A stretch of 32,000 nucleotides of DNA. It comes from Fastidiosibacter lacustris. GTDB lineage: Bacteria; Pseudomonadota; Gammaproteobacteria; Francisellales; Francisellaceae. The DNA is taken from contig NZ_QLIR01000012.1 of NCBI RefSeq assembly GCF_003428155.1, forward strand, positions 31,917 through 63,916, given 5' to 3'. The position numbers were made by a program, and so were the translations under genes. The notes below the pieces were generated by a model. That model was not told the origin of the DNA. It saw only the letters and a list, made by a program, of their open reading frames with translations, and made no database searches. Positions 10,272 to 32,000 of this stretch are shown piece after piece. The first letter of the stretch is position 1. Each line of letters begins with the position of its first letter.

Positions 10272-13200
10272 ATGATGTCAATTGGCGTTGTCAGTTCAGG
10301 CAGCAATGTACACAAGTATTTCATCGACAAAGATAATTACTATTTAACCGATAAGTCTGAGTTAAAAGAAGCGGCAACTTGGTATGGCAAAGGCGCTGAA
10401 TTACTGGGCATTAAAGGTGAGCAAGTCGATGAAAAGTTATTTTTAGATTTACTTCACGGCAGATTACCTAACGGTGAGCAAGTTGGCATTATGCGTGATG
10501 GTTCTTTCAAACATCGCCCTGCAACGGACATTACGTTTTCAGCACCTAAATCGTTATCTATTATGGGTTTGGTTGCAGGTGATACACGCTTGATTGAAGT
10601 CCATAACAAAGCTGTTGAAAAAGCATTAGGCAAGATTGAAGCTTTGTATGCTGAAGCACGTATTACTGAAAATGGCATCACAAGCTATGAAAAAACTGGG
10701 AACTTAACCATTGCCGCCTTTCGTCACACCTCATCTCGTGAAAAAGACCCGCAACTGCATACGCATGGCGTTACGATGAATTTTACGCAAAGAGAAGATG
10801 GGCAATGGCGTGCGCTATCTTCCCGTCAAAAAAATGATGTACAGCATCTTGAAAATGGCTTTAGAGAAATGCTTTATGCCAATCAGCATTACTTGGGCAT
10901 GATTTATAATAGTGAAATTGCTAAAGGCACCGTTGAATGCGGTTATGAAATCAAAGTCAAAGATCAATATGGCAACTTTGATATTGTTGGATTGTCACAA
11001 GACTATCTTGAAAGCCAATCTAAACGCAGAACACAGATTCTCAATAAGCTTGAAGAAAAAGGACTTAACGGTGCTAAAGCTGCACAAAATGCTTGCTTAG
11101 ACAGCCGTATTGCTAAAAGTGATATTTCACCTGATGAATTAAAAGCTGCATGGATTGAAGATGCCAAAGCACAAGGGGTCAGCCTTGGTAAAGTGTTTAT
11201 GGAATCTATAAACAACCTTGAGCAAGATGCAAAAGAAGAAAAGGAAGCAGAAAAGGCAAAAGAAACCAATAGCACTAAAAATAATACGCCGAATGACCAA
11301 CTACCGTCAAAAGCTTATGTCACCAGTGACCTACAAACACACTCACATAACGCCAAAGAAGCCATTAGTGATGCGGTTGCTCATTTATCTCAATATGGCG
11401 TGCAGATAAAGCATGGGGATATTATTCGCCAAGCCTTTGTTTTTTCAGCCGGACTGGTTGAGCATGATCATTTAGAAGCGGTATTGTCGGATAAGCTTAA
11501 AACAGGTGAGCTTATTGGGCGTGAGCATCAATACTATACGACAGATCAATTAGTAAAAGTCGAAAAAGATTTCATGCAGTTTGCTAAAGCATCAATGGTA
11601 AGTGCATGGTCGGTTAACCTTAATCGTTCTGGGTTAGAAGCCTCATTATTTAACCATAAAGACCGCTTGCAATTGATTGATGTTAAAGGCTTGCGCAATG
11701 AAGCAAAACTGATTGACGGACTGGTTAAAACGGCTGAGAACAACGGTTTAAATGTCTATGTATTGCATCAAAACTATTCACGCTTAAATAGGCTTAAAGA
11801 AGATGTTAAACGTGATGGATCAAGCTTATGGAAAGCCTTTAAAAACCATTTTAAGCATGACTTACTGCAAACCGTTGGTAAGTTTGAGCATGATTATACG
11901 CAAAAGCTTAATAATCCTTTTTTTTCTTTTGCTCAATTAAGCCATAAGCAGGACTTAATTATTGTCGCGGATAGCCAAAAACTTGGCATTAAAGACGTTG
12001 AACGCTTAAATACATTAGCCGAAAAAGGGAAAGCTAAGATTGCCTTTTTAAATAATACCGAATCAACCCTTGGCTTTAGTGCGGGCAATCCAATGAAGCT
12101 ATTAAAAGAGTCTGGTGTTAATCAGTTAAGATCACAAAGCATTTCCAAGAACACGCTAGTAGAAGTGGCAAGCTTCAGTGAAGCACACAAAGCTTTAGCA
12201 TATCATTATGTTGGTTTAGATAATGAAGCTAAAAAAAATACGCCGATTGTGGCTTTTACCAATAAAGCACAAGCAGAAATCACTGGTGAGATTCGTGATC
12301 ACTTGAAAGAAAATGGCGAGCTTTCCTTACAGGAAAATCACTACCAAACACTATCAACCAGTCGCTTAAGTGACATTGAAAAAACCAAAACGCAATGCTA
12401 TCAACTTGGTGATAGCGTGACACTGAATCCGTTTGCCCAAGCTGAAGAAAATGGAAAAAGTAAAAGAAGTGAAAAAGGTGAAAAAAATGGCGAAAAGCAC
12501 AAACAGCAAAGTTATCTTGTGACGGGTATAGATCGCGACAATCAAGCTTTACACTTAACGAATCGTCACGGTGAGTCAATACAATTGTCACTGAAAAAAG
12601 AAGATTTATTTCATGCTGATGGCAGCTTTAAAGTTAATTTTGAAGCCAATAAAAGCAAAACAATGGCAATTGCTGTCGGTGAAACCCTACGAGCCACCCG
12701 TAATCTTTATCTGGATTATCAGGCGGATTCAATAGATAACAGTAGTAAAAGTGATAAAAGTGGTCAAAGCGGTGAAAGTAATAAGGATAGCAAAGTTGAA
12801 ACCGTCAAAACAGTTAAAATTGATAAAAACAGCACCTTTAAAGTGCAGTCCATTGCTGAAAATGGTATCCATATTCAGCACGACAATAAAACCATTTTTG
12901 TAGCCAATGAAAAGCTGCAAAGAAGTTTCATTGAGCATGGCTATGTCATTAAACCACATCAGTTAAGCAAGGATACTGATAGTGTTTTAACTGCGCTTTC
13001 AAGTTATCAGGTCAATCAAAATAACATTGGTGAGATTGCTGAGTTTGCGAAAAAAGTCACCCTTTTTACCGATAATCCAGAAAAAAGCACCCAAGCTTTA
13101 AACGCACAGCAAGTTTCATGGTTGGCATTAGATGTCGCCAGTGGCAAAGCACAAAGCTACAACCCGATTGTACGAACAGAAGAAGCCATCAGAAAAGACT

Positions 13201-16200
13201 TAGAGGTGGTGGCTAAAGCCTTATCTGGTGATGACAAAACCAAAGCAGATACGGCCGTTTCTTATGGTATTGCGAAACTGGCTGAGCGTGAGGCAGGCTT
13301 TCAACTGAATGACTTACTCAAAGAGTCGATGAAATATGCCCTTGGCTCGGTATCGCTTGAGGATATTGAAAAAATCATTGCTGATAAATCCAAGCAAGGT
13401 GATTTGTTGGTTACAGGACAAACAGTCACAACAGCTTATGCCTATCAGTTAGAGAAAAATATTATTCAAACGGTTAAAGACAATCACGCCAGTGTTGCAC
13501 CTATTTACGACAAAGTACCTACTTTGAGCCAGGAGATAAGTTTCACCCAAGGACAAAAAGATGCGGTGAGCTTAGCCTTAACCACCAATGATCGTTTTAT
13601 TGGGGTGCAAGGGCTTGCCGGTACAGGAAAAACCACGATGATGAAAGAGTTGAAACAACATGCTGAAAAGGCAGGATTCAATATCATTGGTATTGCGCCA
13701 ACACATAAGGCAGTGCAAATGCTTGATGAGTCTATCAATAAAGAAGTGACTGGTAGTCGCTTTGAAAAAGCGGGGATTCCGGTGATTACTGCACATAGTT
13801 TTATTAATAAAACAAATACAACACATGATGGACACGATACGAACAAGATAGATAACAGCAAAACCCTGTTTATTATTGATGAATCATCGATGTTGGGTAA
13901 TCGGATTTATCATGATATTCAAAAGAAAATTGTTAGTCTCAATGCCAGAGGCATCTTCTCAGGCGATATTAAGCAACAGGTGGCGATTGAAAGCGGGAAA
14001 CCGCAAGAGTTAAGCATGAATAACGGCTTAAAATATGCCTCAATGAATGAAATTGTGCGCCAAAACCCTAACCCACAATTAAAAATGTCGGCTGTATTAG
14101 CAGCAGATAAACAACCGGCTAAAGCATTAATCAATCTTGAAAGTATTAATCCTTTTGATCATATTCAGCGTAAGGATTTTTACAGTAGCGAGCCAATTTC
14201 TTTTATTGAAGTTGGTGCCGCAAAGGATGGTCAAGGCAAAGTATTACTAGATGACAATGGCAAACCCTCGTTAACTAATCTATATGATGTAATTGCTAAG
14301 GATGTATTAACACGCATACCAGAACAGCGCGAAAATACCATTGTGGTTGCTTCAACGCATAAAGATCGCCATGAGATAGATCAACGTATTCGCCAAGGAC
14401 TCATTAATGATGATCACATTAAAAATGAAGTCAATGCAACTCGTTTAATGTCAAAAAACATTGATCAAGCAGATATGTTACATGCTAAAAACTATGAGGT
14501 TGGTGACATACTACGCTTTGAAAGAGGTTACTCAGTTGCCAAAAAAGGGGATTACATGCAAGTGATTGGTATTGATGAAAGCCAAAATAAACTCAATGTG
14601 ATAAACATCGGTGATGGCAATAACTACAGTATCAATCCTGCCAGTATTGCCTTAAAAGCCGATATGAGTGTTTATAAAGAACTAGAAGTACAACTTGGTG
14701 TTGGTGATCGCATCCGACTACGCCAAAGTGACCCTAAGCGTGGTTGGGTCGGTGGTGCTGAGTATAAAGTCAGTGCCATTGAAGATGGTAAGGCTTATTT
14801 AACTTATTTACATCACACGAATGCACAGAATAATAAGCATAATGAAAATAACACGCATACTCATAACCTCACCATTCATCTTACGGATAAAAAAGATCAG
14901 CTTTGGGATTACGCTTATACCAATACAACCTATAGTGCCCAAGGCGCTACGTCCAAATATTTTATTGGGTTAGCCGATGAAAATTATCGTTCGATGTATA
15001 TTCAGCTAACACGCGCAAGCATGCAAGCAACGATATACACAGCGAACAAAGTAAAGCTCCTCAATGGCTTAGAAGATGCTAGACGGCAACTGCAAGCTGA
15101 TAAACTATCCGCTTATGAGATGCTGCATCAAAGCCATCAACAAAAAGAAATTGAAAAAAATGAAACAATTAAAACAATTAAAATAACAAAAGGTGCCTAC
15201 AATAAGCAACATCAAATCAGCAATACTAATGTAAGTGTCGATGGAAAGGGCATACCTATTGCTAAAACACGAGATAAAACAGGGTATACTGCTAAAGAAA
15301 AAATAGAAAAACCAGTTTTAGCTGATGATATTAAGCCACTTTTACGCCAGAGAATGGAGGAGTTAGCGATAAGCTTATTGGGTGAACCTAACAAAGCACT
15401 CTCAAATCAAACCCAGTTACGGTTTGGTAAAAATGGCAGTTTAACGGTGAATTTAGAAAAGGCACAATGGTTCTCACATGAAACTGGCAAGGGTGGCAAT
15501 CCCTTTGATCTCATCAAACATGAGCTGAATTTTAGTGACTTCAAGGATGTCTTGGACTATGCCAAAAAGTTTGTCAATTACACGCCAGATATGCAGTATA
15601 TTGAAGTTAAACCTAAGCCTACTGAGCAAATCAATCTTGAAGATGAAAAACGACAAGAGAGAAAAGAGAAACAAGAGCAAATGAAAGCATTAGGTGATAG
15701 GTTATATCAGCAGTCTGTACCCATTAAAGGCACACTTGGTGAAAAGTATCTAGCAGAATGTAGAGGATTATCATGCTATGAAAATGCAGATATTCGTTTT
15801 GTAAATTCGATCTCTGGCATCGACAAAACAACTGGTAATAGAATCTATACCCCTGCTATTTTATCAGTTGCTAAAGATGATAAAGATGCGCTTCACCATG
15901 TGCAAGTAATTCGATTAAATCAAGATGGCAGCAAAAATAAAGACGTTAAAATCACCAAACAAACTTATGGTAAAATGGATGGCTTTGCTGTGGATTTAAA
16001 CACCAAAGCCGATAAGTCTGTCACCTATCTTGCCGAGGGTGTTGAAACAGGATTATCCATTCTTAATATTCATAAAAATGCACACGTTTTAGCCGTTTTA
16101 GGGAAGTCAAATTTTGCAAATATAAATACAGATAAGCTTGCTGATAAGATAGTTATTTGCCTTGATAATGATTTTAAAGGGAAAGATACATTTAATAATG

Positions 16201-16805
16201 AGCAGAAATTATCAGATCATATTAAATCTATAAAAAGAAACTGTGAACAAATAAATGCGTTAGCTAACCACTTCAAAAGTTACGGAAAAGAGGTACGTTT
16301 TATATTACCAGATAGAGATAAATTTGACTTTAATGATGTATTAAATCAACAAGGATATGCTGAACTTAGCAGACAAGTAAATCAGCTAATAACAGAAAAA
16401 GACTTTAGTAAAATAACGAATAAGTATATTGAAATAAAATTAAATCACATCAATGACGAGATGAGTAAGCACATTAAGTCAATAAAAAATGAATATGAAA
16501 AATCAATTATGCAACATCCTAGTTTAAATCATTTAAACTCATGTCACGATAAGGGCTTATTAATAAATGAGACTATTAATAAATCGAATATTTATAAAGA
16601 TACACTGCTATCAGATCAACGAATAATGGATGCAAAGAAACGTCTTGATAGTCAATTACAAAATCAAATTCGACATGACCAGATTGAAAATATCGTTGGC
16701 AAAATAGATAAAGTAGATAAAATAAATAAGATAGATAAAACACCTAATGCAAAACATCAGGAAACGCTAAAATCACAATCAGTTAATAAGGAAATTGAGC
16801 GATAG
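10272..16805 (+). CDS. traI: TraI: MOB-F relaxase + RecD-like helicase + C-terminal Toprim/primase-like module (2177 aa)
   Basis: AGGAGA SD. The N-terminus MMSIGVVSSGSNVHKYFIDKDNYY...GKGAELLG...HRPATDITFSAPKSLS parallels F TraI (MMSIAQVRSAGSAGNYYTDKDNYY...GKGAEQLG...HRPGYDLTFSAPKSVS), including Tyr16. His triad HTSSREKDPQLHTH at 10724-10766. Walker A GLAGTGKTT at 13611-13637. C-terminal Toprim signature: AEGVETG (Glu 16035-16037) and ICLDNDFKG (DxD 16164-16172). Confidence 0.92.
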   Translation: MMSIGVVSSGSNVHKYFIDKDNYYLTDKSELKEAATWYGKGAELLGIKGEQVDEKLFLDLLHGRLPNGEQVGIMRDGSFKHRPATDITFSAPKSLSIMGLVAGDTRLIEVHNKAVEKALGKIEALYAEARITENGITSYEKTGNLTIAAFRHTSSREKDPQLHTHGVTMNFTQREDGQWRALSSRQKNDVQHLENGFREMLYANQHYLGMIYNSEIAKGTVECGYEIKVKDQYGNFDIVGLSQDYLESQSKRRTQILNKLEEKGLNGAKAAQNACLDSRIAKSDISPDELKAAWIEDAKAQGVSLGKVFMESINNLEQDAKEEKEAEKAKETNSTKNNTPNDQLPSKAYVTSDLQTHSHNAKEAISDAVAHLSQYGVQIKHGDIIRQAFVFSAGLVEHDHLEAVLSDKLKTGELIGREHQYYTTDQLVKVEKDFMQFAKASMVSAWSVNLNRSGLEASLFNHKDRLQLIDVKGLRNEAKLIDGLVKTAENNGLNVYVLHQNYSRLNRLKEDVKRDGSSLWKAFKNHFKHDLLQTVGKFEHDYTQKLNNPFFSFAQLSHKQDLIIVADSQKLGIKDVERLNTLAEKGKAKIAFLNNTESTLGFSAGNPMKLLKESGVNQLRSQSISKNTLVEVASFSEAHKALAYHYVGLDNEAKKNTPIVAFTNKAQAEITGEIRDHLKENGELSLQENHYQTLSTSRLSDIEKTKTQCYQLGDSVTLNPFAQAEENGKSKRSEKGEKNGEKHKQQSYLVTGIDRDNQALHLTNRHGESIQLSLKKEDLFHADGSFKVNFEANKSKTMAIAVGETLRATRNLYLDYQADSIDNSSKSDKSGQSGESNKDSKVETVKTVKIDKNSTFKVQSIAENGIHIQHDNKTIFVANEKLQRSFIEHGYVIKPHQLSKDTDSVLTALSSYQVNQNNIGEIAEFAKKVTLFTDNPEKSTQALNAQQVSWLALDVASGKAQSYNPIVRTEEAIRKDLEVVAKALSGDDKTKADTAVSYGIAKLAEREAGFQLNDLLKESMKYALGSVSLEDIEKIIADKSKQGDLLVTGQTVTTAYAYQLEKNIIQTVKDNHASVAPIYDKVPTLSQEISFTQGQKDAVSLALTTNDRFIGVQGLAGTGKTTMMKELKQHAEKAGFNIIGIAPTHKAVQMLDESINKEVTGSRFEKAGIPVITAHSFINKTNTTHDGHDTNKIDNSKTLFIIDESSMLGNRIYHDIQKKIVSLNARGIFSGDIKQQVAIESGKPQELSMNNGLKYASMNEIVRQNPNPQLKMSAVLAADKQPAKALINLESINPFDHIQRKDFYSSEPISFIEVGAAKDGQGKVLLDDNGKPSLTNLYDVIAKDVLTRIPEQRENTIVVASTHKDRHEIDQRIRQGLINDDHIKNEVNATRLMSKNIDQADMLHAKNYEVGDILRFERGYSVAKKGDYMQVIGIDESQNKLNVINIGDGNNYSINPASIALKADMSVYKELEVQLGVGDRIRLRQSDPKRGWVGGAEYKVSAIEDGKAYLTYLHHTNAQNNKHNENNTHTHNLTIHLTDKKDQLWDYAYTNTTYSAQGATSKYFIGLADENYRSMYIQLTRASMQATIYTANKVKLLNGLEDARRQLQADKLSAYEMLHQSHQQKEIEKNETIKTIKITKGAYNKQHQISNTNVSVDGKGIPIAKTRDKTGYTAKEKIEKPVLADDIKPLLRQRMEELAISLLGEPNKALSNQTQLRFGKNGSLTVNLEKAQWFSHETGKGGNPFDLIKHELNFSDFKDVLDYAKKFVNYTPDMQYIEVKPKPTEQINLEDEKRQERKEKQEQMKALGDRLYQQSVPIKGTLGEKYLAECRGLSCYENADIRFVNSISGIDKTTGNRIYTPAILSVAKDDKDALHHVQVIRLNQDGSKNKDVKITKQTYGKMDGFAVDLNTKADKSVTYLAEGVETGLSILNIHKNAHVLAVLGKSNFANINTDKLADKIVICLDNDFKGKDTFNNEQKLSDHIKSIKRNCEQINALANHFKSYGKEVRFILPDRDKFDFNDVLNQQGYAELSRQVNQLITEKDFSKITNKYIEIKLNHINDEMSKHIKSIKNEYEKSIMQHPSLNHLNSCHDKGLLINETINKSNIYKDTLLSDQRIMDAKKRLDSQLQNQIRHDQIENIVGKIDKVDKINKIDKTPNAKHQETLKSQSVNKEIER

Positions 16806-16887: not shown

Positions 16888-17217
16888 TTATTTCCCACTT
16901 TTCCCTTTCAAATAAGCTGATGTTTTGTTTTCAATCATCGTTATCAATGTATCGGCATCAAAGAATTTACCTGTTGTTTTAGTTTTATCAAAGACACAGC
17001 GTATAATCTCTTTAACCACTTCGTTGGTTTCAATGGCATATTTCACACTATCATCTACTGCAAGATCATCTGATGACTTATCTAGCGATGATTTATGCAC
17101 TCTTAATCCTAAATCAAGCATATCAAGCGCAAAGTTAGCCGTTGATTTACTACTGCTTTTGGCATGTTTTTCTAATTCTTCATAGACATTAGCGCCTATA
17201 TCTAATTTCATTTCCAT
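16888..17217 (-). CDS. traM: TraM-like relaxosome accessory protein (RHH-type N-terminus)
   Basis: MEMKLDIGANVYEELEKHAK...ANFALDMLDLGLRVHKSS resembles F TraM (VNLYISNDAYEKINAI...ATASMLLELGLRVHEAQ as recalled). Size is similar (109 vs 127 aa) and it lies next to the predicted oriT. The third codon ATG (17209-17211) overlaps the upstream gene's TGA as ATGA, so the start may be 17211. Confidence 0.55.
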   Translation of the reverse strand: MEMKLDIGANVYEELEKHAKSSSKSTANFALDMLDLGLRVHKSSLDKSSDDLAVDDSVKYAIETNEVVKEIIRCVFDKTKTTGKFFDADTLITMIENKTSAYLKGKSGK

Positions 17218-17705
17218 TGGTTTTTATCCTCTTCAATTGGAATAGTTTTCATGTTATTTCTATCATTTGAAACATAAATATTTTTATATTCTTCACCTTG
17301 AATCTGTCCACATTTTTTCACTGTTTCATCTAGAGAAATGGCGAATATTTTCTTGGCAATCTCGGTATCATTTATCTTGCCTAAAAGACATTTCGTGCTT
17401 ATTTGTGCTGCATGAACAAGGTGAGGTATCATAATATTTATTTGCTCTGTTAACTTTACTAAATGATTAATGTCATCAGAAATAACAACGTTTTTACCTT
17501 GTTTTTCTTCCTTTTTTTCCAATATTTTTTCGCGAATTAAATGCTTAATTGCCAAACCCAATGATGGCTCATTGTTACTTTTTAATAATGCGTTGTCATA
17601 TGCCAATTTGGTTAGATACTTTTCTTCGGTTTCAGATAACCTTAATGAGGTTGGGTATTGTTTTGATTCCATAAGGCGTTTTTGCTTGATTTTTATGTAG
17701 TGCAT
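17208..17705 (-). CDS. Ribbon-helix-helix protein, candidate TraY-like oriT-binding/regulatory factor
   Basis: PTSLRLSETEEKYLTKLAYDNALLKSNNEPSLGLAIKHLIREKIL fits the RHH pattern (beta strand then two helices). It is the first gene leftward of the predicted oriT and is translationally coupled to the TraM-like gene. The start is uncertain (17705 or 17672; neither has an SD). Confidence 0.5.
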   Translation of the reverse strand: MHYIKIKQKRLMESKQYPTSLRLSETEEKYLTKLAYDNALLKSNNEPSLGLAIKHLIREKILEKKEEKQGKNVVISDDINHLVKLTEQINIMIPHLVHAAQISTKCLLGKINDTEIAKKIFAISLDETVKKCGQIQGEEYKNIYVSNDRNNMKTIPIEEDKNQWK

Positions 17706-18254
17706 TGTAGCGCATATAAAGTGGACTTGCTAGCTATTTGTATCACATTTTACTACTTATAACGGTTTTATAAGGCTAGTCTCTGTATTAAATTGTGCTA
17801 CAATCAGGCTAATGAGTATATCCCTTGTACTACAATGTAGTTTTTACATATAAATACTTTACTCTGATGCCAAGAGATGCTTATAAATAAAGGCTTCTCT
17901 ATGTATTATTTTTTGCTACAAGATAATCAGGAGTATTTTTAATGATTTTATATTCGCTAAAAAAAGCCAAAAGCCTTTATTTACAAGACTTTGAATAAGC
18001 CTTTTTAGGCAACACTCGATTGCGTGGTGTGTGGCAGGGTCAGGGAGGTCGTGTCGAGGATACCTTGGATTTAATGTAATGATTATGATAATCGTTATCG
18101 TACAGTGTGCGTATGAAAATTGAGCAGACAATCCTATGCCGTTTGAATGGAAATTGACATTTTAAGCCTATACCTTTTAAAAAGATGGAATAAAATTAAA
18201 GGACAATAAAAACAAGATAAAATCGGTTTGATTTTTTAAAAAAATATTATTTTT
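17706..18254 (+). other. Probable origin of transfer (oriT) region
   Basis: A 549-bp gene-free interval between the RHH/TraM-like genes and ardC. It contains an F/R100-like nic sequence, three ATTGTAG/CTACAAT motifs (two of them palindromic) and a perfect 13-bp inverted repeat (17884-17896 / 17971-17983). Confidence 0.6.
18020..18037 (+). other. Candidate nic site (predicted cleavage between 18032 and 18033)
   Basis: TTGCGTGGTGTGT|GGCAG compared with F TTTGCGTGGGGTGT|GGTGC and R100 TTTGCGTAGTGTGT|GGTGC, both as recalled. It matches F at 14 of 15 positions over TTGCGTGG.GTGTGG. At the two positions that differ between F and R100 it carries one base of each. Confidence 0.55.
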
Positions 18255-19208
18255 CTATGTAACTTTTTCATATTGATCATTTACATTAATATTCAAAAGA
18301 AAACTAAAAACTTTTACGCAACATTTAACAGCTTCCATATAATCATCATCTGTTAAAAGTGAAAGCCAACTTTCAATATATTTTTCATGATTTTTTATCT
18401 CGCCATTAATACCAAAATGCTTTAATAAAATGGTGCTGCTGATCTCAGCAATTAACTCTTCTTTTGCATAAGACTTTTTGCATGAAAAATTTATTTCTCG
18501 ATTTAATCTGCTTGGATGCAATGTCCAATGCGCTAACTCATGCAAAAGCGTTGCCTGATAGTCTGCCTCAGTTCTAAAATATTTTGGGCTTGGCAGCCTT
18601 ATTTCGTCTAACTCTGGTGAGTAATAAGCTTGACCAATGTCATGATGAACAATTTTTGGATTGTGTGCATTAATCAAGCTTTCGATACCACTATCAGTTT
18701 TTATTTCCTGATCAACATCTTTTAAGGTTGTTTGCGTTAAATTAAAAACGCGGTACATTTTAGGGCATATAGCAGTATATTTGTATTTATCACCCGCTTT
18801 AACTTTAACTAAATGACCATTGTTTTTATATTCATAATCAGTTTTCGCGTCACCTTCCTTTTTGTAAGTTGTAAAGAAAAAGACTTCTTCCGATTTTTCA
18901 CCTTTACGCACACTCCCACCAAGTTCATTTATTTGTTTGAAAGTAAACCATTGATTAGACTTGTATTTATTTTCAAGTTGCGAAAATAATAATTGCAAAA
19001 CGTTAACGCCGTTATATAGTTTTGATTGACTATTAACAGGCAATAACTGACTTCCTGAGCGATCAAAATTATCTACCCAAACGTCTGCGCCTTTTTTGAT
19101 ATTTTCTTTAATCTTTTGAGCAATAGACAAAACATAATCCTGATATGTTGTTTTTACTGTTTTTGAAGTTTTTAAAGTGCTATATTTTTTTACTTTTGTT
19201 GTAGTCAT
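18255..19208 (-). CDS. ardC: ArdC-like antirestriction protein (N-terminal ssDNA-binding domain + C-terminal zincin metalloprotease)
   Basis: 317 aa with a GGAG SD. The N-terminal part is DUF1738-like. The C-terminal part has LLHELAHWTLHPSRLNR (HExxH) followed by YAKEELIAEISS, typical of ArdC/TraC-type proteins. Confidence 0.85.
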   Translation of the reverse strand: MTTTKVKKYSTLKTSKTVKTTYQDYVLSIAQKIKENIKKGADVWVDNFDRSGSQLLPVNSQSKLYNGVNVLQLLFSQLENKYKSNQWFTFKQINELGGSVRKGEKSEEVFFFTTYKKEGDAKTDYEYKNNGHLVKVKAGDKYKYTAICPKMYRVFNLTQTTLKDVDQEIKTDSGIESLINAHNPKIVHHDIGQAYYSPELDEIRLPSPKYFRTEADYQATLLHELAHWTLHPSRLNREINFSCKKSYAKEELIAEISSTILLKHFGINGEIKNHEKYIESWLSLLTDDDYMEAVKCCVKVFSFLLNINVNDQYEKVT

Positions 19209-19246
19209 CGTATTATCTCCATTGTTGTGTTGATAACACCTTTTGC

Positions 19247-19321
19247 AACAAGCCTTAAAAAATTAAATGCAAGGGTGCCGCAGGCACTTGCGTAGCCCTT
19301 GCATTTGAATTTTGGCTTGTT
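19247..19321. other. Composite long hairpin upstream of ardC (terminator and/or ssDNA-active element)
   Basis: AACAAGCC-TTAAAAAATT-AAATGCAAGGG-[TGCCGCAGGCACTTGCGTAG]-CCCTTGCATTT-GAATTTT-GGCTTGTT. There is a perfect 11-bp inner stem and a perfect 8-bp outer stem, with partly pairing A/T between them. The apical loop holds its own mini-hairpin TGCC-GCA-GGCA. Confidence 0.6.
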
Positions 19322-19344
19322 AAAAAAGAAAATATTACTAGGCT

Positions 19345-19363
19345 ATCACGCTGTAAGCGTGAT
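19345..19363. terminator. Hairpin ATCACGC-TGTAA-GCGTGAT downstream of the TA operon
   Basis: Perfect 7-bp stem. The T-run (TCCTTTTTG) follows it on the plus strand only. On the minus strand, the sense of the TA operon, the U-tract is displaced by ~14 nt. Confidence 0.4.
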
Positions 19364-19433
19364 TCCTTTTTGTCGGCGTTGTTTATTTTTTGAGATTTCA
19401 GGAAAGAACTTTAAAGGGATTGAGATAAAAAAA

Positions 19434-19739
19434 TTATGATAAATATTTTAAGCCATTCTCATCAACGAGATTAATTAGTTTTAAGATAGCACCCTTAGCT
19501 TGTCGCGTGCCCTGCTCAAGACTTTTAACCATTGCTGGACTGATATTAAGAAATTTAGCAAATACCGCTTGGCTGACGTTTTGACGTTCTCTAATTGCTT
19601 TTATATCATCGCCTGTATATTCGTATACTGTTGGCGTTTCAACTTCGGTTAATTCGCGCAGGGTTGTTTTGTCAATAATACCACTGGTGTATAGATCATT
19701 TGACAAGTCGTTTATGGTTTCTCTTATGCTGCTCATCAT
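19434..19739 (-). CDS. HTH (XRE/NadS-type) antitoxin
   Basis: IKAIRERQNVSQAVFAKFLNISPAMVKSLEQGTRQAKGAILKLINLV is the typical HTH of antitoxins paired with PF06296-type RelE toxins. Its ATG overlaps the toxin's TGA (ATGA at 19736-19739). Confidence 0.8.
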   Translation of the reverse strand: MMSSIRETINDLSNDLYTSGIIDKTTLRELTEVETPTVYEYTGDDIKAIRERQNVSQAVFAKFLNISPAMVKSLEQGTRQAKGAILKLINLVDENGLKYLS

Positions 19740-20107
19740 ATCACCTTAAATAGTTTTTTATCTGCGATTAACGTTTGCACATCACTATCACTTAATGACA
19801 GTAATATGCTAGACAACTTTTTAAAGTCCACAAGCTCGCGCTTTGTGAAGTTTTCTTTTTCATTCTTTTTAAAGCAATGCACCCAGTAACATACAACGCC
19901 ATCACTAAAAACAATAATGGTTCGACTGCTGCCGCTTTTGCCTTTATTGTCTGTCGCTACTCTAAGCTTATATAAGCTGCCACCTAATGCATATCTTTGC
20001 TTACCCAAGTCATCTAGTGAAGCAAAGTAATTTAATGTTTCTTTTAAATCTGCATCGCTAATATGTTTTGATTCACTTGCAAACTTTTTTATTTTATAAT
20101 TTTTCAT
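19736..20107 (-). CDS. RelE/HigB-2-like toxin (123 aa from ATG 20107)
   Basis: LGGSLYKLRVATDNKGKSGSSRTIIVF...FKKNEKENFTKRELVDFKKL matches the G-x-YK-R-ia...GKSGG-R-i...F-KNe-eNl-E signature. The track's extra 41 N-terminal residues are AT-rich promoter sequence. Confidence 0.75.
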   Translation of the reverse strand: MKNYKIKKFASESKHISDADLKETLNYFASLDDLGKQRYALGGSLYKLRVATDNKGKSGSSRTIIVFSDGVVCYWVHCFKKNEKENFTKRELVDFKKLSSILLSLSDSDVQTLIADKKLFKVI

Positions 20108-20118
20108 GCTTAAAATAG

Positions 20119-20166
20119 TTGGCTGTATGTTACATAGTATTATAATACACTGGCTTACCATGTCAA
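20119..20166. promoter_or_regulatory. Back-to-back sigma70 promoters sharing one palindromic -10
   Basis: Minus strand: TTGACA (20161-20166), 16 nt, TATAAT (20139-20144), reading into the toxin gene. Plus strand: TTGGCT (20119-20124), 16 nt, TATAAT (20141-20146), reading into the 81-aa gene. Both -10 boxes lie inside the perfect 12-bp palindrome GTATTATAATAC (20137-20148). Confidence 0.55.
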
Positions 20167-20223
20167 TAAAACAATAAAGCAAAAAATTAAAAATAATGAT
20201 ATAAACATAAGGAAGTAAATAAC

Positions 20224-20469
20224 ATGCCAAGCATTACAAAACCATCTGCACCCAGTTATATGACGCTACCTAAAAAAGTTAGAATCACCGAGGAAACTTA
20301 CTTTAAAATGCTAGAGTATCTGGATTGGAATCAATCGCTTGATGGCGAAAACGATATTGATTTTTTAATTGAGGAATCCATTAAAATTGCACTCGAATCT
20401 GATAAAGATTTTAAGCGTAGAAATAAAGTGAAGAAAACAGCAGCGGTTAAGGAAGAAGCGACTGCATAA
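20224..20469 (+). CDS. Hypothetical small protein (81 aa, possible RHH-like regulator)
   Basis: ATG preceded by AAGGAAG. PKKVRITEETYFKMLEYL resembles an RHH strand-helix start. It is divergent from the TA operon. Confidence 0.5.
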   Translation: MPSITKPSAPSYMTLPKKVRITEETYFKMLEYLDWNQSLDGENDIDFLIEESIKIALESDKDFKRRNKVKKTAAVKEEATA

Positions 20470-20487
20470 TGCAGTCTAATAACTCAC

Positions 20488-20841
20488 TTAATAGCGATAC
20501 TCAGGGATGCGTTCGATTTCGTTATCAATGCGATACGTCATATCATCACAGTAAACATTTTCTAGCTTCTTAATCGTTGCATGCTCCAGTATCTCATACC
20601 GGCATTCATTAGATGTCGTAAACTTCGGCGGGTATTCACTAAACAACACTTCATAGGTGTCACTGCCAAAACAGTAACGGATATATACATAACCATCTAA
20701 ATGCCTTGCATTGACTTTAAACATCAGTGTCGTTTCATCTAGGCGCTTAAAGTCATGCGCACCCCAACTCCAAACCAAGGTTCTTCCGCCTGTAAATAAT
20801 TGCTGTATGATTGTGTTTACGTAATAGTTTTTATCATTCAT
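20488..20841 (-). CDS. Hypothetical protein (117 aa), leading-region orphan
   Basis: Strong SD (AAGGAG 7 nt upstream). No motif recognised. Trp/Tyr/Cys-rich globular composition. Confidence 0.6.
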   Translation of the reverse strand: MNDKNYYVNTIIQQLFTGGRTLVWSWGAHDFKRLDETTLMFKVNARHLDGYVYIRYCFGSDTYEVLFSEYPPKFTTSNECRYEILEHATIKKLENVYCDDMTYRIDNEIERIPEYRY

Positions 20842-21134
20842 GGTTGTGCTCCTTTTGTAGCTTGCTTTTGGTTGTTTTTATTATTTTTATTTTTTCGCTT
20901 TGTGGTCGAGAAAGTTTTTGATAACCCATTTATTCCATATTGTGCAAATTAACAAACATTGACTATGATTAATCTATGCGCTTGAGCGGTTGAAACGAGG
21001 CGTTTTTATTAATTTTATTTGGTATTCTCTTGCTCAGGTGTATAACCTTTATAAAACACATAAACTGCCCAATTGACCATAACCGCATTAAAAGCTAATA
21101 TTCGTGCAAAACAATATTGAGTAACACAATTACC

Positions 21135-21377
21135 ATGCGTAATGACGAAAAGAAAATCATGGCTATTGACGCCAAAGTTAAAGCCCTCCGTGCTAAAAAC
21201 ACCGATGACATGATACTTTTAACCGAAATGATTGATGAGATGCTAATTTTTAGAGAAACTATGAAAAATACTAAACCAGAGCAACTAAATGCCTACTGTC
21301 AGAAATATACCAACTTTTTCTACTTTGCAAAACTACTGGACAATCTTGCAGACAAACTCGCCAGCGCTAAAGCCTAA
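21135..21377 (+). CDS. Hypothetical helical protein (80 aa from ATG 21135; track start TTG 21117)
   Basis: An ORF with helical, charged composition. No SD precedes either start, so the call is weak. Confidence 0.35.
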   Translation: MRNDEKKIMAIDAKVKALRAKNTDDMILLTEMIDEMLIFRETMKNTKPEQLNAYCQKYTNFFYFAKLLDNLADKLASAKA

Positions 21378-21393
21378 AATTTCCTGTTTTACG

Positions 21394-21407
21394 ACCACGA
21401 TCGTGGT
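21394..21407. terminator. Bidirectional terminator-like palindrome between convergent genes
   Basis: Perfect 14-bp palindrome ACCACGATCGTGGT, flanked by GTTTTACG on the left and TAAAAAAC on the right. This gives a U-run after the hairpin for transcripts from the minus-strand genes; the plus-strand transcript gets an A-run. Confidence 0.5.
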
Positions 21408-21435
21408 TAAAAAACGGAAAATCAGAAATTTAAAT

Positions 21436-21771
21436 CTATTGCCCATCACTAAAATACGCATCAATGCCTTTCTGTACTAGCTGATATTCAAACCCTTTAT
21501 TCAGCAAATATTTTAAAAGCTTTTGCTTCTTGCCATAATCGGTTTTGCCTTTAATCAAAGGATACTTAGCACTGATTCTGCGTAGAACATTGTTAAACTG
21601 CTGTACTTCGTCAACGACAACTAACTTGTCAATCATGCTTTGTGGTATCGCTTTCTTTTTGAGCTTATCAATCAATGCACCTGTTGATATATCTTGGTTA
21701 CTTTCAATGATACGCCTTGCTTTGTTTTCTAATAGCATATCGTTGGTTATATTGGCGTTGTCTAGAGTCAT
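21436..21771 (-). CDS. RecX-family mini-protein (two helical repeats, 111 aa)
   Basis: AAGGGA SD. KARRIIESNQDISTGALIDKLKKKAIPQSMIDKLV parallels the first repeat of E. coli RecX (RAMRLLAHRDRSEWELRRKLAQKGFSEEVIEQAI, as recalled). AKYPLIKGKTDYGKKQKLLKYLLNKGFEYQLVQKGI parallels the last repeat ([34 protein letters not shown]). The middle repeat is absent. Confidence 0.5.
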   Translation of the reverse strand: MTLDNANITNDMLLENKARRIIESNQDISTGALIDKLKKKAIPQSMIDKLVVVDEVQQFNNVLRRISAKYPLIKGKTDYGKKQKLLKYLLNKGFEYQLVQKGIDAYFSDGQ

Positions 21772-21784
21772 TGTGGCATCCCTT

Positions 21785-22486
21785 TTACATCTTTATTATT
21801 CTTTTTATCCTGTTCTGCCTTCTCTCTTCCTTAATTACCTCGGCTTCTGGTATCTGATTAAATGCAAATTTCACCTGCGCATTACTTAATATATTAGTTA
21901 GGTTAGCCGTATCTATTCGATTAACTTTTATATCTTCAGACTTGCAAAATTCCCCATTGTTATCAATCCCAATGATTATGTAGCGGCGTTCACTTTCATT
22001 GAGCGTGTTGGCTAATGATATAATATCCTTAAACAAGTCACCCTGTTTTTTTGAATCCTTAGAATACCATTCACGCTTAAAATCATGGCGTTCACTTTCT
22101 CTTTTAGATTCAATTAACGGGATTATATCTTTACGTACTTCAATATATTTAGGTGTTGCTTGCAACTCTATCTTGTCTGCATCTTCTGGTTTTAGCTCTA
22201 GTTTAGAATGTTTTATTAATACGTTTAGTAAAGCAGTCCCTTTTATTTCTAAAATATGATGGGTATTTAAGGATAAGCAGTATTTTTTATCTTTACTAAA
22301 TTCAAAGCTAAGGTTGTTTAATATATCAGACTCTCCAGCCTTGGAAAAATCATCCTCAAGGAGATTGTCAATTTTATGAAATATGCTTATTTTGACAACT
22401 ATCTCACCCTTCCTATCGCTATAGTGGCTCTGCACAATTCCAATATAGCCTTTAAGACTTAGTATCAAGTTGAAGCTCCGGAACAC
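21785..22486 (-). CDS. Protein with a C-terminal AlbA_2/Schlafen-like DNA-binding domain and an unknown N-terminal half
   Basis: ESERHDFKREWYSKDSKKQGDLFKDIISLANTLNESERRYIIIGIDNNGEF fits the AlbA_2 pattern E-x-lEFK...i-k-i-AfaNt-GG-liiGvdd-G. The track start is GTG 22486 without an SD. TTG 22468 follows GGAG at 7 nt and is the more likely start. Confidence 0.5.
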   Translation of the reverse strand: MFRSFNLILSLKGYIGIVQSHYSDRKGEIVVKISIFHKIDNLLEDDFSKAGESDILNNLSFEFSKDKKYCLSLNTHHILEIKGTALLNVLIKHSKLELKPEDADKIELQATPKYIEVRKDIIPLIESKRESERHDFKREWYSKDSKKQGDLFKDIISLANTLNESERRYIIIGIDNNGEFCKSEDIKVNRIDTANLTNILSNAQVKFAFNQIPEAEVIKEERRQNRIKRIIKM

Positions 22487-22667
22487 AAAGACAAATTTTT
22501 GAGCTGTTCAAAACAGTGTCATTTTGAATTCTATTTTCCATGTATTTTAATTCGATAAAACTCGCTTCAATATCACTATCAAAATCATCATTTACAACTA
22601 AAATAAAACTATCCATAAATACCATTAACCTTTTATGTTCCAGCTTCCGATATAGATATGCATACAA
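22452..22667 (-). CDS. Small acidic protein (57-71 aa), overlapping and probably coupled to the AlbA_2-like gene
   Basis: ORF with a TTG start at 22667, or ATG at 22625 or 22616. Acidic core VVNDDFDSDIEASFIELKYMEN. Its 3' end overlaps the next gene by 17-35 nt. Confidence 0.35.
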   Translation of the reverse strand: MYAYLYRKLEHKRLMVFMDSFILVVNDDFDSDIEASFIELKYMENRIQNDTVLNSSKICLCVPELQLDTKS

Positions 22668-22901
22668 GCGACCAATAATAAAAATTCTCTGGTTTGTTCT
22701 GTGAATTTATTGCTTAGCATCACTGTTTTTCTACGGCTGATATGCTTTGCTCAAATTCTACAGATAATTACAAGCTTATCAAACGCTCACTCCTTGTGAC
22801 ATCAATAAATTTTCACTGCGCACTGATAAACTTGCTTATTTTGAGGTATTACACTACTTTAGTCATTGGTAAAACATATATAACCAAAGGAGTAACATTA
22901 T

Positions 22902-25685: not shown

Positions 25686-26000
25686 CTAGCTCGCCTTTAA
25701 GGTTATCGTATAATCTAAGCCAGCAGTATATAGTTGATCTTCCAAAAGACGAGAAATAAAGAACTCTTTAGGATGTTTTAGATACTCAGCAAACTTTAAA
25801 GCAAGCTCAACATCCACCTTACGCTCACCACTTTCAATATTGCATAGGTATTGTCGACTTATACCAATAGAGCGAGCCATTTCAGCCTGAGAAACATTTT
25901 CACACATGCGTAACGACTTTACCATATCACCAAAATATAGATGTCCTGTTATTTCAGATATAGCCTGAGATGCACTTAATTTATTTTCACTAATATTCAT
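25686..26000 (-). CDS. XRE-family HTH antitoxin
   Basis: MVKSLRMCENVSQAEMARSIGISRQYLCNIESGERK is a canonical HTH_3. It overlaps the upstream toxin gene by 11 nt. Confidence 0.75.
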   Translation of the reverse strand: MNISENKLSASQAISEITGHLYFGDMVKSLRMCENVSQAEMARSIGISRQYLCNIESGERKVDVELALKFAEYLKHPKEFFISRLLEDQLYTAGLDYTITLKAS

Positions 26001-26280
26001 GTTTGTTTACCTCTATTATCTCAAGATAGCTAACTTCAATTCTGCCGTTTTCATGTTCAACATAAAAAGCACGGTACGCTTTGTTTAAACGAATTGACCG
26101 CTGTCCAGTTCTGTCACCTTTTAACGGTTCATCATGGTATGAGCTTATTTGTCTAACCTCTATAACACCATATTGCTCAACCATCAAAACCCACGTATTT
26201 AGCTTATCAATTATATGCCTTGGTATTTTTCTTAGCGATTTTGCCACTTTCCTGTCAATTATAACTTTGTTTATATTCAT
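25990..26280 (-). CDS. RelE/ParE-superfamily toxin (toxin-first, HigB-like organisation)
   Basis: HDEPLKGDRTGQRSIRLNKAYRAFYVEHENGRIEVSYLEIIEVNKHEY fits the RelE-type C-terminal signature (LkG...g-rSiRin-yR-iY...i-I-i-H-Y). Confidence 0.75.
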   Translation of the reverse strand: MNINKVIIDRKVAKSLRKIPRHIIDKLNTWVLMVEQYGVIEVRQISSYHDEPLKGDRTGQRSIRLNKAYRAFYVEHENGRIEVSYLEIIEVNKHEY

Positions 26281-26476
26281 CTAACTAAAGCATAGTAACT
26301 GATATAAATATAATTGTATCCTGATTTGGATACTTTTACAAATGTTGATGTCAACTTAGACTGTAACCCCTTGATGTCAGGCAACATCAATATATCTGTC
26401 AGATTTAAGTTGGTATTTGCTTTAGTTGGCACTTTGAAATCAATATCAAAGGGCAAGCTTGACAGCATCTACACCT

Positions 26477-26764
26477 TCAAGCTGCGATAGGGTTAACAGG
26501 TGTATGTTTCTGTTTTGCGTTCCATAAATCGTAGGCTAATTGTAAGTTTAACCAAAATTCAGCCTCCATATTAAACGCTTCAGCAAATGCTAAAGCAGTA
26601 TCAGCAGTAATTCCTCGCTTGCCATTTACAATTTCGTTAATCCTTGCATATGTCCACCCTAAATGTTTTGCAAATTTTGACTGCGTTATCCCCATTGGTT
26701 CCAAAAAGTCTTTCAAAAGAATTTCACCGGCATGGGTTGGTTGTCTTGTGGTTGGAAGTCTCAT
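26477..26764 (-). CDS. higA: HigA antitoxin (HTH)
   Basis: PTHAGEILLKDFLEPMGITQSKFAKHLGWTYARINEIVNGKRGITADTALAFAEAF is the classic HigA signature. I start at ATG 26764 because GAGGAG lies 7 nt upstream; the track's TTG 26779 overlaps the higB stop. Confidence 0.85.
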   Translation of the reverse strand: MRLPTTRQPTHAGEILLKDFLEPMGITQSKFAKHLGWTYARINEIVNGKRGITADTALAFAEAFNMEAEFWLNLQLAYDLWNAKQKHTPVNPIAA

Positions 26765-26775
26765 TTTATCACTCC

Positions 26776-27066
26776 TCAATGGTAATCAACAATATCAACG
26801 TCTACCGCACTATTCTTAACCAACTTGAATATAATACGATACTGATTATTAATCCGTATTGACCAACAATCTGACAGCTTGCCCTTTAGTTTTTCCAATT
26901 TATTATTTGGCGGCACATTCAAGTCTTCAATCTTAGTGACAGCATTTAGCTGATCCAATTTTCTAACTGCAAGTGAATGTAGATTTGTTGGAAGCTTTCT
27001 AGAATATCTAGTAGATACTCCATTAAACACATCTTCAGCCATCTTACTATTAAAATTCTTAATCAA
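26776..27066 (-). CDS. higB: HigB toxin (plasmid maintenance system killer family)
   Basis: TTG start. The N-terminus MIKNFNSKMAEDVFNG and the C-terminus LSDCWSIRINNQYRIIFK are typical of HigB (PF05015-type). It lies directly upstream of higA. Confidence 0.85.
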   Translation of the reverse strand: MIKNFNSKMAEDVFNGVSTRYSRKLPTNLHSLAVRKLDQLNAVTKIEDLNVPPNNKLEKLKGKLSDCWSIRINNQYRIIFKLVKNSAVDVDIVDYH

Positions 27067-29912: not shown

Positions 29913-30041
29913 CTATTTATTAAACAAAATATCTTGCTTAAATATAACCACTAAGAATGTTGATACCGTAATTGGCGTTTATTGATGTAGTTGTTAAGGT
30001 GGTCGAGTAAGCCAGAGGAACTTCCCCTCTAACTTCTCACG

Positions 30042-30075
30042 GAACCGTACGTGACAGTCTCCTGTCATACGGCTC
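30042..30075 (-). ncRNA. Group II intron catalytic domain V
   Basis: The minus strand reads GAGCCGTATGACAGGAGACTGTCACGTACGGTTC: the AGC triad, a 2-nt bulge position and a GNRA-type apical region. It is a near-textbook 34-nt domain V and sits immediately 3' of the RT stop codon. Confidence 0.9.
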
Positions 30076-31335: not shown

Positions 31336-32000
31336 GTTATGGTTGACTCATTTTCACAACGGTACAATGTAACCCCTTCGCTCCATTCCCATTACAGGAA
31401 TTTCAACACTACTACGAGTTACTCCGCCCCTGTGCTCTGCTTTGGTACTTTCATCCTTATGGGGCTACCACTTCAGATTTTTCCCTTGTCATCAGAACGA
31501 CAGGTTCCCAAGTTCCTGCTAAAAGCCTAAGATAAGCTCATGCCACCTCAATACCCGATGCCGCTCAGTCAGTAAATAGCTAACTTCTGAGCTTATCCCA
31601 ATGCTCCACTACCCATTGGTTTTGACATCATGAAAATTGCTAACGATACGTCATCAATGGTTCACTTTCATTCATCTTCTTATCTCATACCTGACATATA
31701 TTTATGCCTTTTCCTCAACGCTCACTACCATAACTCTTTATTACAGCAGCTTGAGGTGGTTTGAAGCCTGTAGCTATATACCGACTTCGGGAGACCTACT
31801 CCCATCTTCTAACAAGCATGGTGTTTACACACCTTCTTGGCACACTAATGGACTGCAAACTTAAATGCTTTTTTATTTTATCTTTCTTGATATTATGTTG
31901 GTCAAATTATAATAAACAAGTTTAACGTAAAATTTAGGACAGATAGTCTGAAAACTATATTGCTTCTTGACACTTAGCAAATCTCGTTCTGTTGCAAACT

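Follow-up and report, generated by a model that had tools for sequence, protein, structure and literature searches.

The window analysed here is a 32,000-nucleotide (nt) stretch of a Fastidiosibacter lacustris contig (NZ_QLIR01000012.1, forward-strand positions 31,917 to 63,916; coordinates below are those of the window unless another locus is named), and our subject is the block at 18033-22667, next to the predicted origin of transfer (oriT) of an F-type conjugative element (MOBF relaxase, MPF-F). The assignment of this block as the leading region of the element is well supported in itself, and the fuller reading, in which the anti-restriction gene ardC would be expressed while the incoming DNA is still single-stranded (ssDNA), is in our judgement rather likely. 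An initial annotation of the same DNA had listed nine open reading frames (ORFs) in the block, seven of them on the minus strand, with a switch to plus-strand orientation at about 22.9 kb; all nine are present, and the switch lies where it was placed. Two of the nine, 22452-22667 (71 amino acids, aa) and 21785-22486 (233 aa), had been taken for two proteins, the former 'small acidic' and the latter 'AlbA_2-like', and are fragments of a single decayed gene, so that the block comprises six genes on the minus strand, five of them intact and one decayed, and two on the plus strand. The features of oriT and of the block are as follows, the caret marking the predicted cut.

17706-18032, plus strand: oriT, accessory-protein side
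18020-18034, plus strand: predicted nic, TTGCGTGGTGTGT^GG, with its putative cut between 18032 and 18033
18255-19208, minus strand: ardC, encoding an ssDNA-binding N-terminal domain and a HExxH zincin domain (HELAH)
19223-19343, plus (transferred) strand: conserved hairpin module, stem 19240-19328, in the gap that separates the stop of the antitoxin gene from the start of ardC
19434-20110, minus strand: type II toxin-antitoxin operon, RelE toxin followed by HTH_3 antitoxin
19736-20110, minus strand: RelE-family toxin, ATG at 20110 (Pfam PF06296, 3e-22)
19434-19739, minus strand: HTH_3 antitoxin (Pfam, 4e-7)
20139-20166, minus strand: sigma-70 promoter TTGACA-16-TATAAT before the toxin gene, 12/12 consensus, double-strand type
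20224-20469, plus strand: 81-aa gene with an AAGGAAG ribosome-binding site
20488-20841, minus strand: 117-aa protein (phrog_9437, 8e-6)
21117-21377, plus strand: 86-aa ORF, its frame also open in Cysteiniphilum sp. JM-1
21436-21771, minus strand: RecX-like protein, 111 aa (Pfam RecX_HTH3, 28.1 bits; cut-off 26)
21785-22616, minus strand: decayed AlbA_2/Schlafen-family gene, N-terminal fragment 22461-22616 (frame -1) and body 21785-22498 (frame -2)

On the other side of oriT lies an F-type transfer set, identified by Pfam on the plus strand (TraG_N, TraT, TraD and a TrwC-type TraI) and followed by two accessory genes on the minus strand.

232-3132, plus strand: TraG_N
3689-4447, plus strand: TraT
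4454-6460, plus strand: TraD, coupling protein
10272-16805, plus strand: TraI, 2177 aa, with TrwC relaxase, AAA_30 helicase and C-terminal DUF7146 and Toprim_3 (primase-like) domains
16888-17217, minus strand: relaxosome accessory gene, 109 aa, weakly TraM-like (Pfam Tra_M E 4e-4, under the curated cut-off)
17208-17705, minus strand: relaxosome accessory gene, 165 aa, without family match

The traI gene ends beside oriT and converges on the two accessory genes (16888-17705, minus strand), both of which are transcribed away from oriT, and a gap of 549 bp (17706-18254) separates the 165-aa accessory gene from the leading block. The TraM-like gene occupies a position equivalent to that of traM in F, and its homologue in L013, a JGI metagenome contig, matches Tra_M with an E of 8.7e-5. 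The element encodes a TrwC relaxase, and the predicted nic is on the strand that continues 3' into the block, with the accessory genes 5' of it and traG, traT, traD and traI further on that side. The nic itself, TTGCGTGGTGTGTGG at 18020-18034 on the plus strand, is the sole match to the F-type pattern in the 32-kb window, where 0.07 matches would be expected even with 2 mismatches allowed, and is identical to the F nic at 14 of 15 bases. The single difference is G to T at F position 145'; R100 departs from F at two positions, of which this is one. F bases 140', 141', 142' and 144', substitution of any of which impairs binding or transfer (PMC2504302), are all retained. In F, cleavage occurs at 5'-TTTGCGTGGGGTGT^GGT-3' (PMC2504302), the transferred strand at oriT (NC_002483) reading TTTTTGCGTGGGGTGT^GGTGCTTTTGG, and the predicted TraI substrate in the window is TTGCGTGGTGTGTGGCAG. 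The motif recurs in three relatives, as ATTGCGTGGTGTGT^GG in Cysteiniphilum sp. JM-1 (L003), as ATTGCGTGGTGTGT^GC in L013 and as ATTGCGTGATGTGT^GA in the ENA contig L004; in all three it is kept while the sequence immediately 3' of the nick has diverged, as would be expected if the relaxase recognises bases 5' of the cut. No F-type nic pattern was found in Legionella pLPL.

The distance from nic to the start of the first accessory gene is 327 nt, compared with 322 nt from nic to traM in F. The intervening accessory-protein side of oriT shows about 85% identity to Cysteiniphilum JM-1 and is conserved in L013; between the 165-aa gene and nic it contains GYRCTACAA repeats, direct at 17794-17804, 17826-17836 and 17912-17921 and inverted at 17704-17714, that are probably binding sites for the accessory proteins. 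At the same place L004 has palindromes unrelated to GYRCTACAA (TACTAATATTTAGTA). Conjugative transfer proceeds 5' to 3'. TraI becomes attached to the 5' phosphate (PMC3074121). From these two properties and the geometry of nic, we infer that the plus strand is cut at 18032/18033, that its portion from 18033 enters the recipient first, and that it would serve there as template for the minus-strand genes. This is the cut and the strand that the initial annotation had proposed, and its further call of a leading region is upheld by the F-type nic with its spacing and by genes that run toward oriT as in F.

Co-orientation of the block becomes convincing only when it is considered together with related elements. 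In L006, a restriction-modification gene and oriT bound a stretch of 15 genes, 13 of which have a common orientation and include a RecX-like gene, a member of the 117-aa family and a Gp49 toxin-antitoxin pair; in L008 this is true of 21 of 22 genes, among them those for a RecX-like protein, SSB, DUF4942 and ArdC. ArdC and HicAB of Legionella pLPL converge on the mobF end in the same geometry as in the window, and the annotated leading genes of F, apart from the SLT gene and a single small hypothetical one, lie on the traM strand, directed toward oriT. The cassette that comes first after nic is swapped among relatives: it is ardC in the window (18170-19240), a 1.9-kb set of several uncharacterised genes, one of them a phrog_10415 match, in JM-1 (L003 2525-4000) and a 150-aa gene in L013 (1357-1809). 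Despite these exchanges, oriT on one flank and the hairpin module on the other are retained, and the conserved flanks may serve as recombination anchors.

By the predicted order of transfer, ardC is the first gene to enter the recipient, within the first 1.2 kb, its stop codon (18255) lying 222 nt from the predicted nick (220 nt in the initial annotation). Its product matches the Pfam families ArdcN (4.5e-23) and MPTase-PolyVal (5.8e-34), both above cut-offs, the anti-restriction family phrog_7245 (7.6e-56) and, over residues 24-290, the solved ArdC of R388 (PDB 6I89/6SNA; E 8e-38), whose HEATH motif aligns with the HELAH of the window protein. Its earlier designation as a known anti-defence gene is confirmed by these matches, and on such sequence grounds both the identity of ArdC and its place as first-entering gene are solid. 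The R388 gene (IncW; PMC7213743) likewise encodes the two domains and HExxH and lies in a leading sector, and that study reports a need for it in the recipient and not in the donor; it differs in that the window ardC would be the very first gene in and stands behind the hairpin module. Among the ArdC homologues listed for other genera's plasmids, none exceeds 36% identity to ArdC of the window, and an exact-protein look-up returned no record.

The hairpin module is the most distinctive feature of the block. When the transferred strand (T-strand) was folded in 100-nt windows over 17.7-23 kb, the sole outlier was 19240-19339, at -28.2 kcal/mol against a mean of -6.35 +/- 3.38, and the 95-nt hairpin element folds as ssDNA with a dG of -28.5 and a z of -6.3, the corresponding z for F Frpo2, used as a control, being -6.4. 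The intergenic T-strand stretches 20842-21135, 22668-22901 and 17960-18254 showed ordinary folding (z +1.35, -2.1 and -0.2) and were dropped as candidate ssDNA promoters. Eight full copies of the module occur in six elements, all on the T-strand; seven were found by covariance model R1 and the eighth (L013) by a pattern scan, which in metagenomes also recovered two further copies cut by contig ends. Behind the eight stand ardC, twice, and six different unknown genes, those in relatives including the 150-aa gene, an 81-aa gene together with a separate phrog_10415 gene, genes of 58, 72 and 104 aa, and a member of the 117-aa family. In the seven aligned copies the element ends 15-52 nt, mostly about 26 nt, ahead of a start codon, the sequence after it being a conserved leader that contains the ribosome-binding site AGGAG. 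The hairpin on the ardC side is nearly unchanged in JM-1 though ardC itself has been replaced there by the 1.9-kb cassette, and in L013 it precedes the 150-aa gene, itself the first after nic. JM-1 has a second copy (L003 696-816, corresponding to about 20895 of the window) upstream of the 117-aa gene; it is not in the window, which implies that gain or loss involves the module as a whole.

With the seven copies aligned by fitting to the model, 95.3% of cells are paired, and 16 pairs covary, compared with 5.4 +/- 1.8 in shuffles (0/500 reaching that number) and 2-5 in slid controls, a count that derives from about four lineages. The middle stem covaries freely, whereas no change is seen in CAAGGG/CCCTTG, in the outer stem or in a 2x2 internal loop where GC faces AA; expressed in terms of promoter elements, the TTG of a -35 box, TGTTAAAAA and the 2x2 mismatch never vary across copies and the spacer stem does so by covariation. 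The distal arm, read from loop to base, offers a -35 of TTGCAT (19299-19304) and an extended -10 of TGT-TAAAAA (19318-19326). All copies conform to TTGNNN (TTGCAT in the window, TTGACA in pQT6929, TTGATT in L008), a 16-17-nt spacer and TGT-TAAAAA, and the -11/-10 adenines (19322-19323) are unpaired, being part of the mismatch opposite GC at 19245-19246. The stem-loop thus lies directly 5' of a leading gene on the transferred strand, and in the folded single strand the distal arm would, by inference from this model, act as the non-template strand for a polymerase heading to ardC. In duplex DNA the sense strand has TTGCAA where the T-strand arm has TTAAAA, so that no equivalent double-strand promoter faces ardC; neither the interval from hairpin to ardC nor the distal flank, when searched, gave a convincing promoter of the double-strand type on the sense strand. 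On this evidence the hairpin is probably a compact Frpo-like ssDNA promoter of ardC. A blastn search of the hairpin against PLSDB, which includes F and IncI plasmids, gave no match, nor did the covariance model in Legionella pLPL, the F locus (L001) lying outside the model search and Frpo not having been directly aligned.

Among the remaining genes of the block is that of the RecX-like protein. Of the three repeats (HTH1 to HTH3) that define RecX, only RecX_HTH3 exceeds its Pfam cut-off in this protein; residues 32-108 align to the C-terminal two repeats of NCBIfam RecX models, with scores far under the model cut-offs. An AlphaFold2 model (pLDDT 77) consists of six helices forming two three-helix repeats, and the top two Foldseek matches in the PDB are both RecX, 3e3v (probability 0.96, E 0.3) and 3d5l. 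The description as a RecX-like mini-protein therefore holds for the domain match and the fold, while one of the three repeats is missing: the protein shares the three-helix repeats of RecX and differs in having two of them and 111 aa, against about 150-270 aa in matched RecX. Fifteen homologues were found, and a literature search gave no account of a plasmid-borne RecX-like gene in a leading region. PsiB in F damps RecA/SOS activity. It is like the RecX-like protein in its leading-region position and has no sequence relation to it. Judged from family and context only, the RecX-like protein would most plausibly damp RecA/SOS activity triggered by incoming ssDNA, as PsiB does in F. Loss of host recX raises plasmid-induced SOS (PMC11288057). 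In four other elements the gene immediately after that of the RecX-like protein is an Rpn gene (L005 10703-11254, L007 10455-11393, L008 4164-5012 and L002 8066-8980), which suggests a recurrent pair. Between the RecX-like stop and the 86-aa ORF lies a near-perfect palindrome, ACGACCACGATCGTGGT (21379-21422), conserved in JM-1, with no clear T-run after it on either strand.

The RelE-type pair proposed earlier is borne out by its two Pfam matches. Toxin and antitoxin genes overlap by 4 nt (19736-19739) and share one promoter, as in a type II operon, and codon changes relative to JM-1 (16 synonymous to 1 non-synonymous in the antitoxin, 8 to 3 in the toxin) indicate, at the sequence level, that the pair is under strong purifying selection. 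The 117-aa protein had been called an orphan and is not one: a profile search at E<=1e-3 gathered 211 cluster representatives, although close relatives number only three, and it is by these sequence criteria a member of a widespread uncharacterised family. None of 43 members has a Pfam match, and the AlphaFold2 model (helix, antiparallel sheet, helix; pLDDT 87, pTM 0.82) gave nothing significant against PDB and BFVD folds, where the weak resemblances were E2/Atg10-like, frataxin-like and to uncharacterised phage proteins. The 81-aa protein of the plus strand is without family match in Pfam, PHROG, NCBIfam and PADLOC scans, shows 74% aa identity to a homologue at the same position in L010, and has its frame open in JM-1; its gene and the convergent 117-aa gene are set apart by a hairpin that they share. 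A homologue had been sought beside oriT in L004, where BLASTP found none. For the 86-aa ORF, also without family match, changes relative to JM-1 fall with a mild bias on third codon positions (11, compared with 5 and 5 at the others); the ORF is probably a real gene, and both plus-strand ORFs look real by such sequence signs. PDB sequence searches with the 117-aa, RecX-like, AlbA and 81-aa proteins were uninformative.

The decayed gene was reconstructed with a 357-aa homologue from Facilibium (P0169), which in tblastn aligns first in frame -1 (22616-22461) and then in frame -2 (22498-21827), and relative to which the window gene is frameshifted by +1 near 22460 and has lost ~80 codons internally. 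The window fragment still matches Pfam SLFN_AlbA_2 (1.2e-7), and intact P0169 matches the PADLOC candidate defence family PDC-S50 (2e-39); from these matches the family looks like defence and not anti-defence. Exact-protein look-ups with P0168 and P0169 gave no record. A promoter-like TTGATA-16-TAGAAT (10/12) lies at 22755-22782 on the minus strand, upstream of the decayed AlbA_2 and RecX-like genes, and suggests for both of them a promoter of the ordinary double-strand kind.

These observations can be combined into a sequence of events. TraI would nick the plus strand at 18032/18033 and stay on the 5' end at 18033, and the strand would enter 5' first, carrying in order ardC, the RelE toxin-antitoxin pair, the 117-aa gene, the RecX-like gene and the decayed AlbA_2 gene. 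On the incoming strand 19240-19328 would fold into a duplex that presents the -35, the 16-nt spacer and the extended -10, with the -11/-10 adenines already unpaired; host RNA polymerase would start near 19235 and read the T-strand into ardC through a 27-nt leader with GGAG. ArdC would then be made before a complementary strand exists and would protect the DNA from type I restriction. Once the DNA is duplex the hairpin promoter would be gone, a terminator in the sense RNA would leave ardC at read-through level, and the toxin-antitoxin pair would come on from its consensus double-strand promoter and stabilise the element. Expression from ssDNA followed by insulation has been reported for Frpo and other ssDNA-promoter classes (PMC9849209, PMC12672017). 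As a more tentative extension, the module of about 120 nt (hairpin, leader and ribosome-binding site) could represent a new, portable class of ssDNA promoter, with a pre-melted -10, that becomes a terminator when double-stranded; its joint form, in which the two-repeat RecX-like protein, itself not behind a module copy, would in addition be a PsiB-independent anti-SOS factor, is speculative. If true, the module would give a hard-wired pulse of expression to any gene behind it, and the genes behind its copies would form a list of candidate first-minute establishment or anti-defence factors.

Several points weigh against this interpretation. Only ardC sits behind a module copy in the window. The strand count from which the initial annotation argued, seven of nine ORFs, is correct as a count and by itself not significant (two-sided binomial p about 0.18), as is likewise the case for six of eight when real loci are counted, and the non-templated strand carries two conserved genes. 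The AlbA_2 gene has decayed, its family matches a candidate defence system, and the similarity to RecX is modest (two of three repeats, with the Foldseek E quoted above). The covariation has its narrow base of lineages and an alignment fitted to the model. The -10 hexamer, TAAAAA, does not end in the conserved T and is unlisted by a consensus scan; the same scan finds nothing in the validated F Frpo2 region, where the -35/-10 boxes were located neither by eye nor by scan, and the geometric comparison with F is confined to its description in the literature. At ~90 nt and -28 kcal/mol the hairpin is far smaller than F Frpo2 (~300 nt, -119 kcal/mol) and weaker than the -75 kcal/mol screening threshold of the pESBL study (PMC12672017), and it can also be read as an ordinary bidirectional intrinsic terminator. 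With the double-strand promoter of the toxin-antitoxin pair added to the lone module copy, the decayed gene and the two genes of opposite strand, the wider claim that the whole block acts in early anti-defence is not supported. Searches of the remaining ORFs, regarded in the initial annotation as prime candidates for such functions, gave no anti-defence family in Pfam, PHROG, NCBIfam or PADLOC, no dedicated set of anti-defence hidden Markov models having been used; the block has one recognised anti-defence gene near oriT in T-strand orientation, ardC, and not a cluster of several. Much of this would be accommodated if the block were ordinary accessory cargo beside oriT, in which ArdC alone has an establishment role and the other genes are without anti-defence function, an alternative that we consider possible and not probable. 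The non-significant strand count, the frameshifted and deleted AlbA_2 gene with its PDC-S50 family match, the promoter of the toxin-antitoxin pair and the failure of any unknown gene to match anti-defence or defence models are all in keeping with it, and the leading-region genes of pESBL are not all induced early (PMC12672017). Cargo would be harder to reconcile with the recurrence of RecX-like proteins, the 117-aa family, RelE/Gp49 pairs, ArdC and SSB in co-oriented blocks near oriT or relaxase genes of independent relatives, and with the statistical enrichment of toxin-antitoxin pairs in leading regions (PMC11541004).

Two other alternatives accept the leading region and concern the hairpin. 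It could be no more than a bidirectional terminator or insulator between cassettes, with the genes expressed from double-strand promoters, or by read-through, after second-strand synthesis. The U-run AAUUUUUUAAGG after the stem in the sense RNA, U-rich sequence after the stem on the other strand too, terminator-like sites listed by a scan at 19275-19287 (minus) and 19345-19363 (plus), and a location directly past the antitoxin stop are what a terminator would show, and the non-consensus -10 and a size far below that of known Frpo elements point the same way. A terminator, however, should be placed by the upstream stop, whereas the module, irrespective of the gene behind it, keeps a short, mostly constant distance to the start codon and a conserved Shine-Dalgarno leader; the JM-1 copy before the 117-aa gene has no minus-strand gene ending nearby, the outer stem of ~15 bp and the invariant 2x2 mismatch are needless for termination, and no sense-strand double-strand promoter is visible from which ardC would then be read. 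We regard this explanation as unlikely. Less likely still is a role of the hairpin in priming of the complementary strand, as a single-strand initiation (ssi) signal, perhaps recognised by the DUF7146/Toprim_3 part of TraI brought along into the recipient, and not as the promoter of ardC. TraI has these domains at its C-terminus and relatives encode that domain separately beside traI, Frpo-type elements are reported to yield primer RNA besides mRNA (PMC12672017), and the hairpin is strand-specific and within the leading region; yet a priming site needs neither a fixed distance to a start codon nor a leader with a ribosome-binding site, and the conserved spacing of -35 and extended -10 would be left unexplained. 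Promoter and priming roles are in any case not mutually exclusive.

The layout of the block conforms to a known architecture. With F the window shares a nearly identical nic core (TTGCGTGG[G/T]GTGT^GG), the nic spacing, leading genes directed toward oriT, a toxin-antitoxin module and a T-strand hairpin upstream of an early gene; it differs in that the leading block, only about 4.6 kb, is without ssb, psiB, psiA and ardA and has no Frpo-like DNA by PLSDB search, and in that traI ends next to oriT and has a Toprim domain. We know of no earlier description of such a layout in Fastidiosibacteraceae, and the leading-region anti-defence arrangement would hereby be extended to F-like elements of these relatives of Francisella. 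Leading-region anti-defence islands, genes readable from the T-strand, enrichment in toxin-antitoxin pairs and ssDNA promoters have already been published (PMC11541004, PMC9849209, PMC12672017). The islands of Samuel et al. (Nature 2024; PMC11541004), which are reported to be oriented for reading of the T-strand, to be enriched in toxin-antitoxin pairs and to hold Frpo-like candidates and numerous unknown genes, resemble the window in their anti-restriction gene by oriT, T-strand orientation, toxin-antitoxin pair, numerous uncharacterised genes, variable content and candidate ssDNA promoter. The window is set apart by its Fastidiosibacteraceae host, by a RecX-like protein and a 117-aa family that are unnamed in the main text of that paper, and by having one recognised anti-defence gene plus one decayed candidate defence gene; RecX, AlbA and Schlafen go unmentioned in that main text, the supplementary tables being outside the search. 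The closest likeness to the hairpin is with the non-Frpo ssDNA promoters of pESBL and F, classes 2 and 3 (PMC12672017), which, like the window candidate, are T-strand stem-loops directly 5' of leading genes; theirs reconstitute -35/-10 boxes and are unrelated to Frpo in sequence, traits that the window hairpin may share. Those promoters are large and validated by 5' RACE, whereas the window hairpin is much shorter, known from sequence, and part of a portable cassette with a leader and an invariant, pre-melted 2x2 mismatch in the -10. What is new, then, is a further example of an established architecture, with a promoter class that is possibly new. The candidate is small and well delimited, amounting to one oligonucleotide-sized fragment. 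If active, the module would single out uncharacterised genes of several elements as expressed very early, and would offer both an inexpensive route to new proteins of establishment or anti-defence and a compact component for engineering conjugative delivery vectors; if inactive, the region remains a clean and ordinary instance of the known architecture.

Other features of the window concern its wider relationships. Megablast and blastn searches of PLSDB with the region returned a sole match, 283 bp of Cysteiniphilum pQT6929. In the ENA element (L004/L006) the Toprim protein is encoded by a separate 357-aa gene, two genes past traI. An Rpn/YhgA (Transposase_31) gene lies between traD and traI at 7745-8674 on the plus strand. 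The Rfam scan of the window detected only a group II intron, far away from the leading region at 30002-31803 on the minus strand, where D1-D4 and D5/6 matches flank a reverse transcriptase (RT)/maturase ORF (30076-31335). Past the plus-strand block that follows the leading region (DUF378, HTH and DUF3987 genes), two tandem HigB-like/HTH toxin-antitoxin pairs at 25686-27066 on the minus strand have the same orientation as the leading genes.

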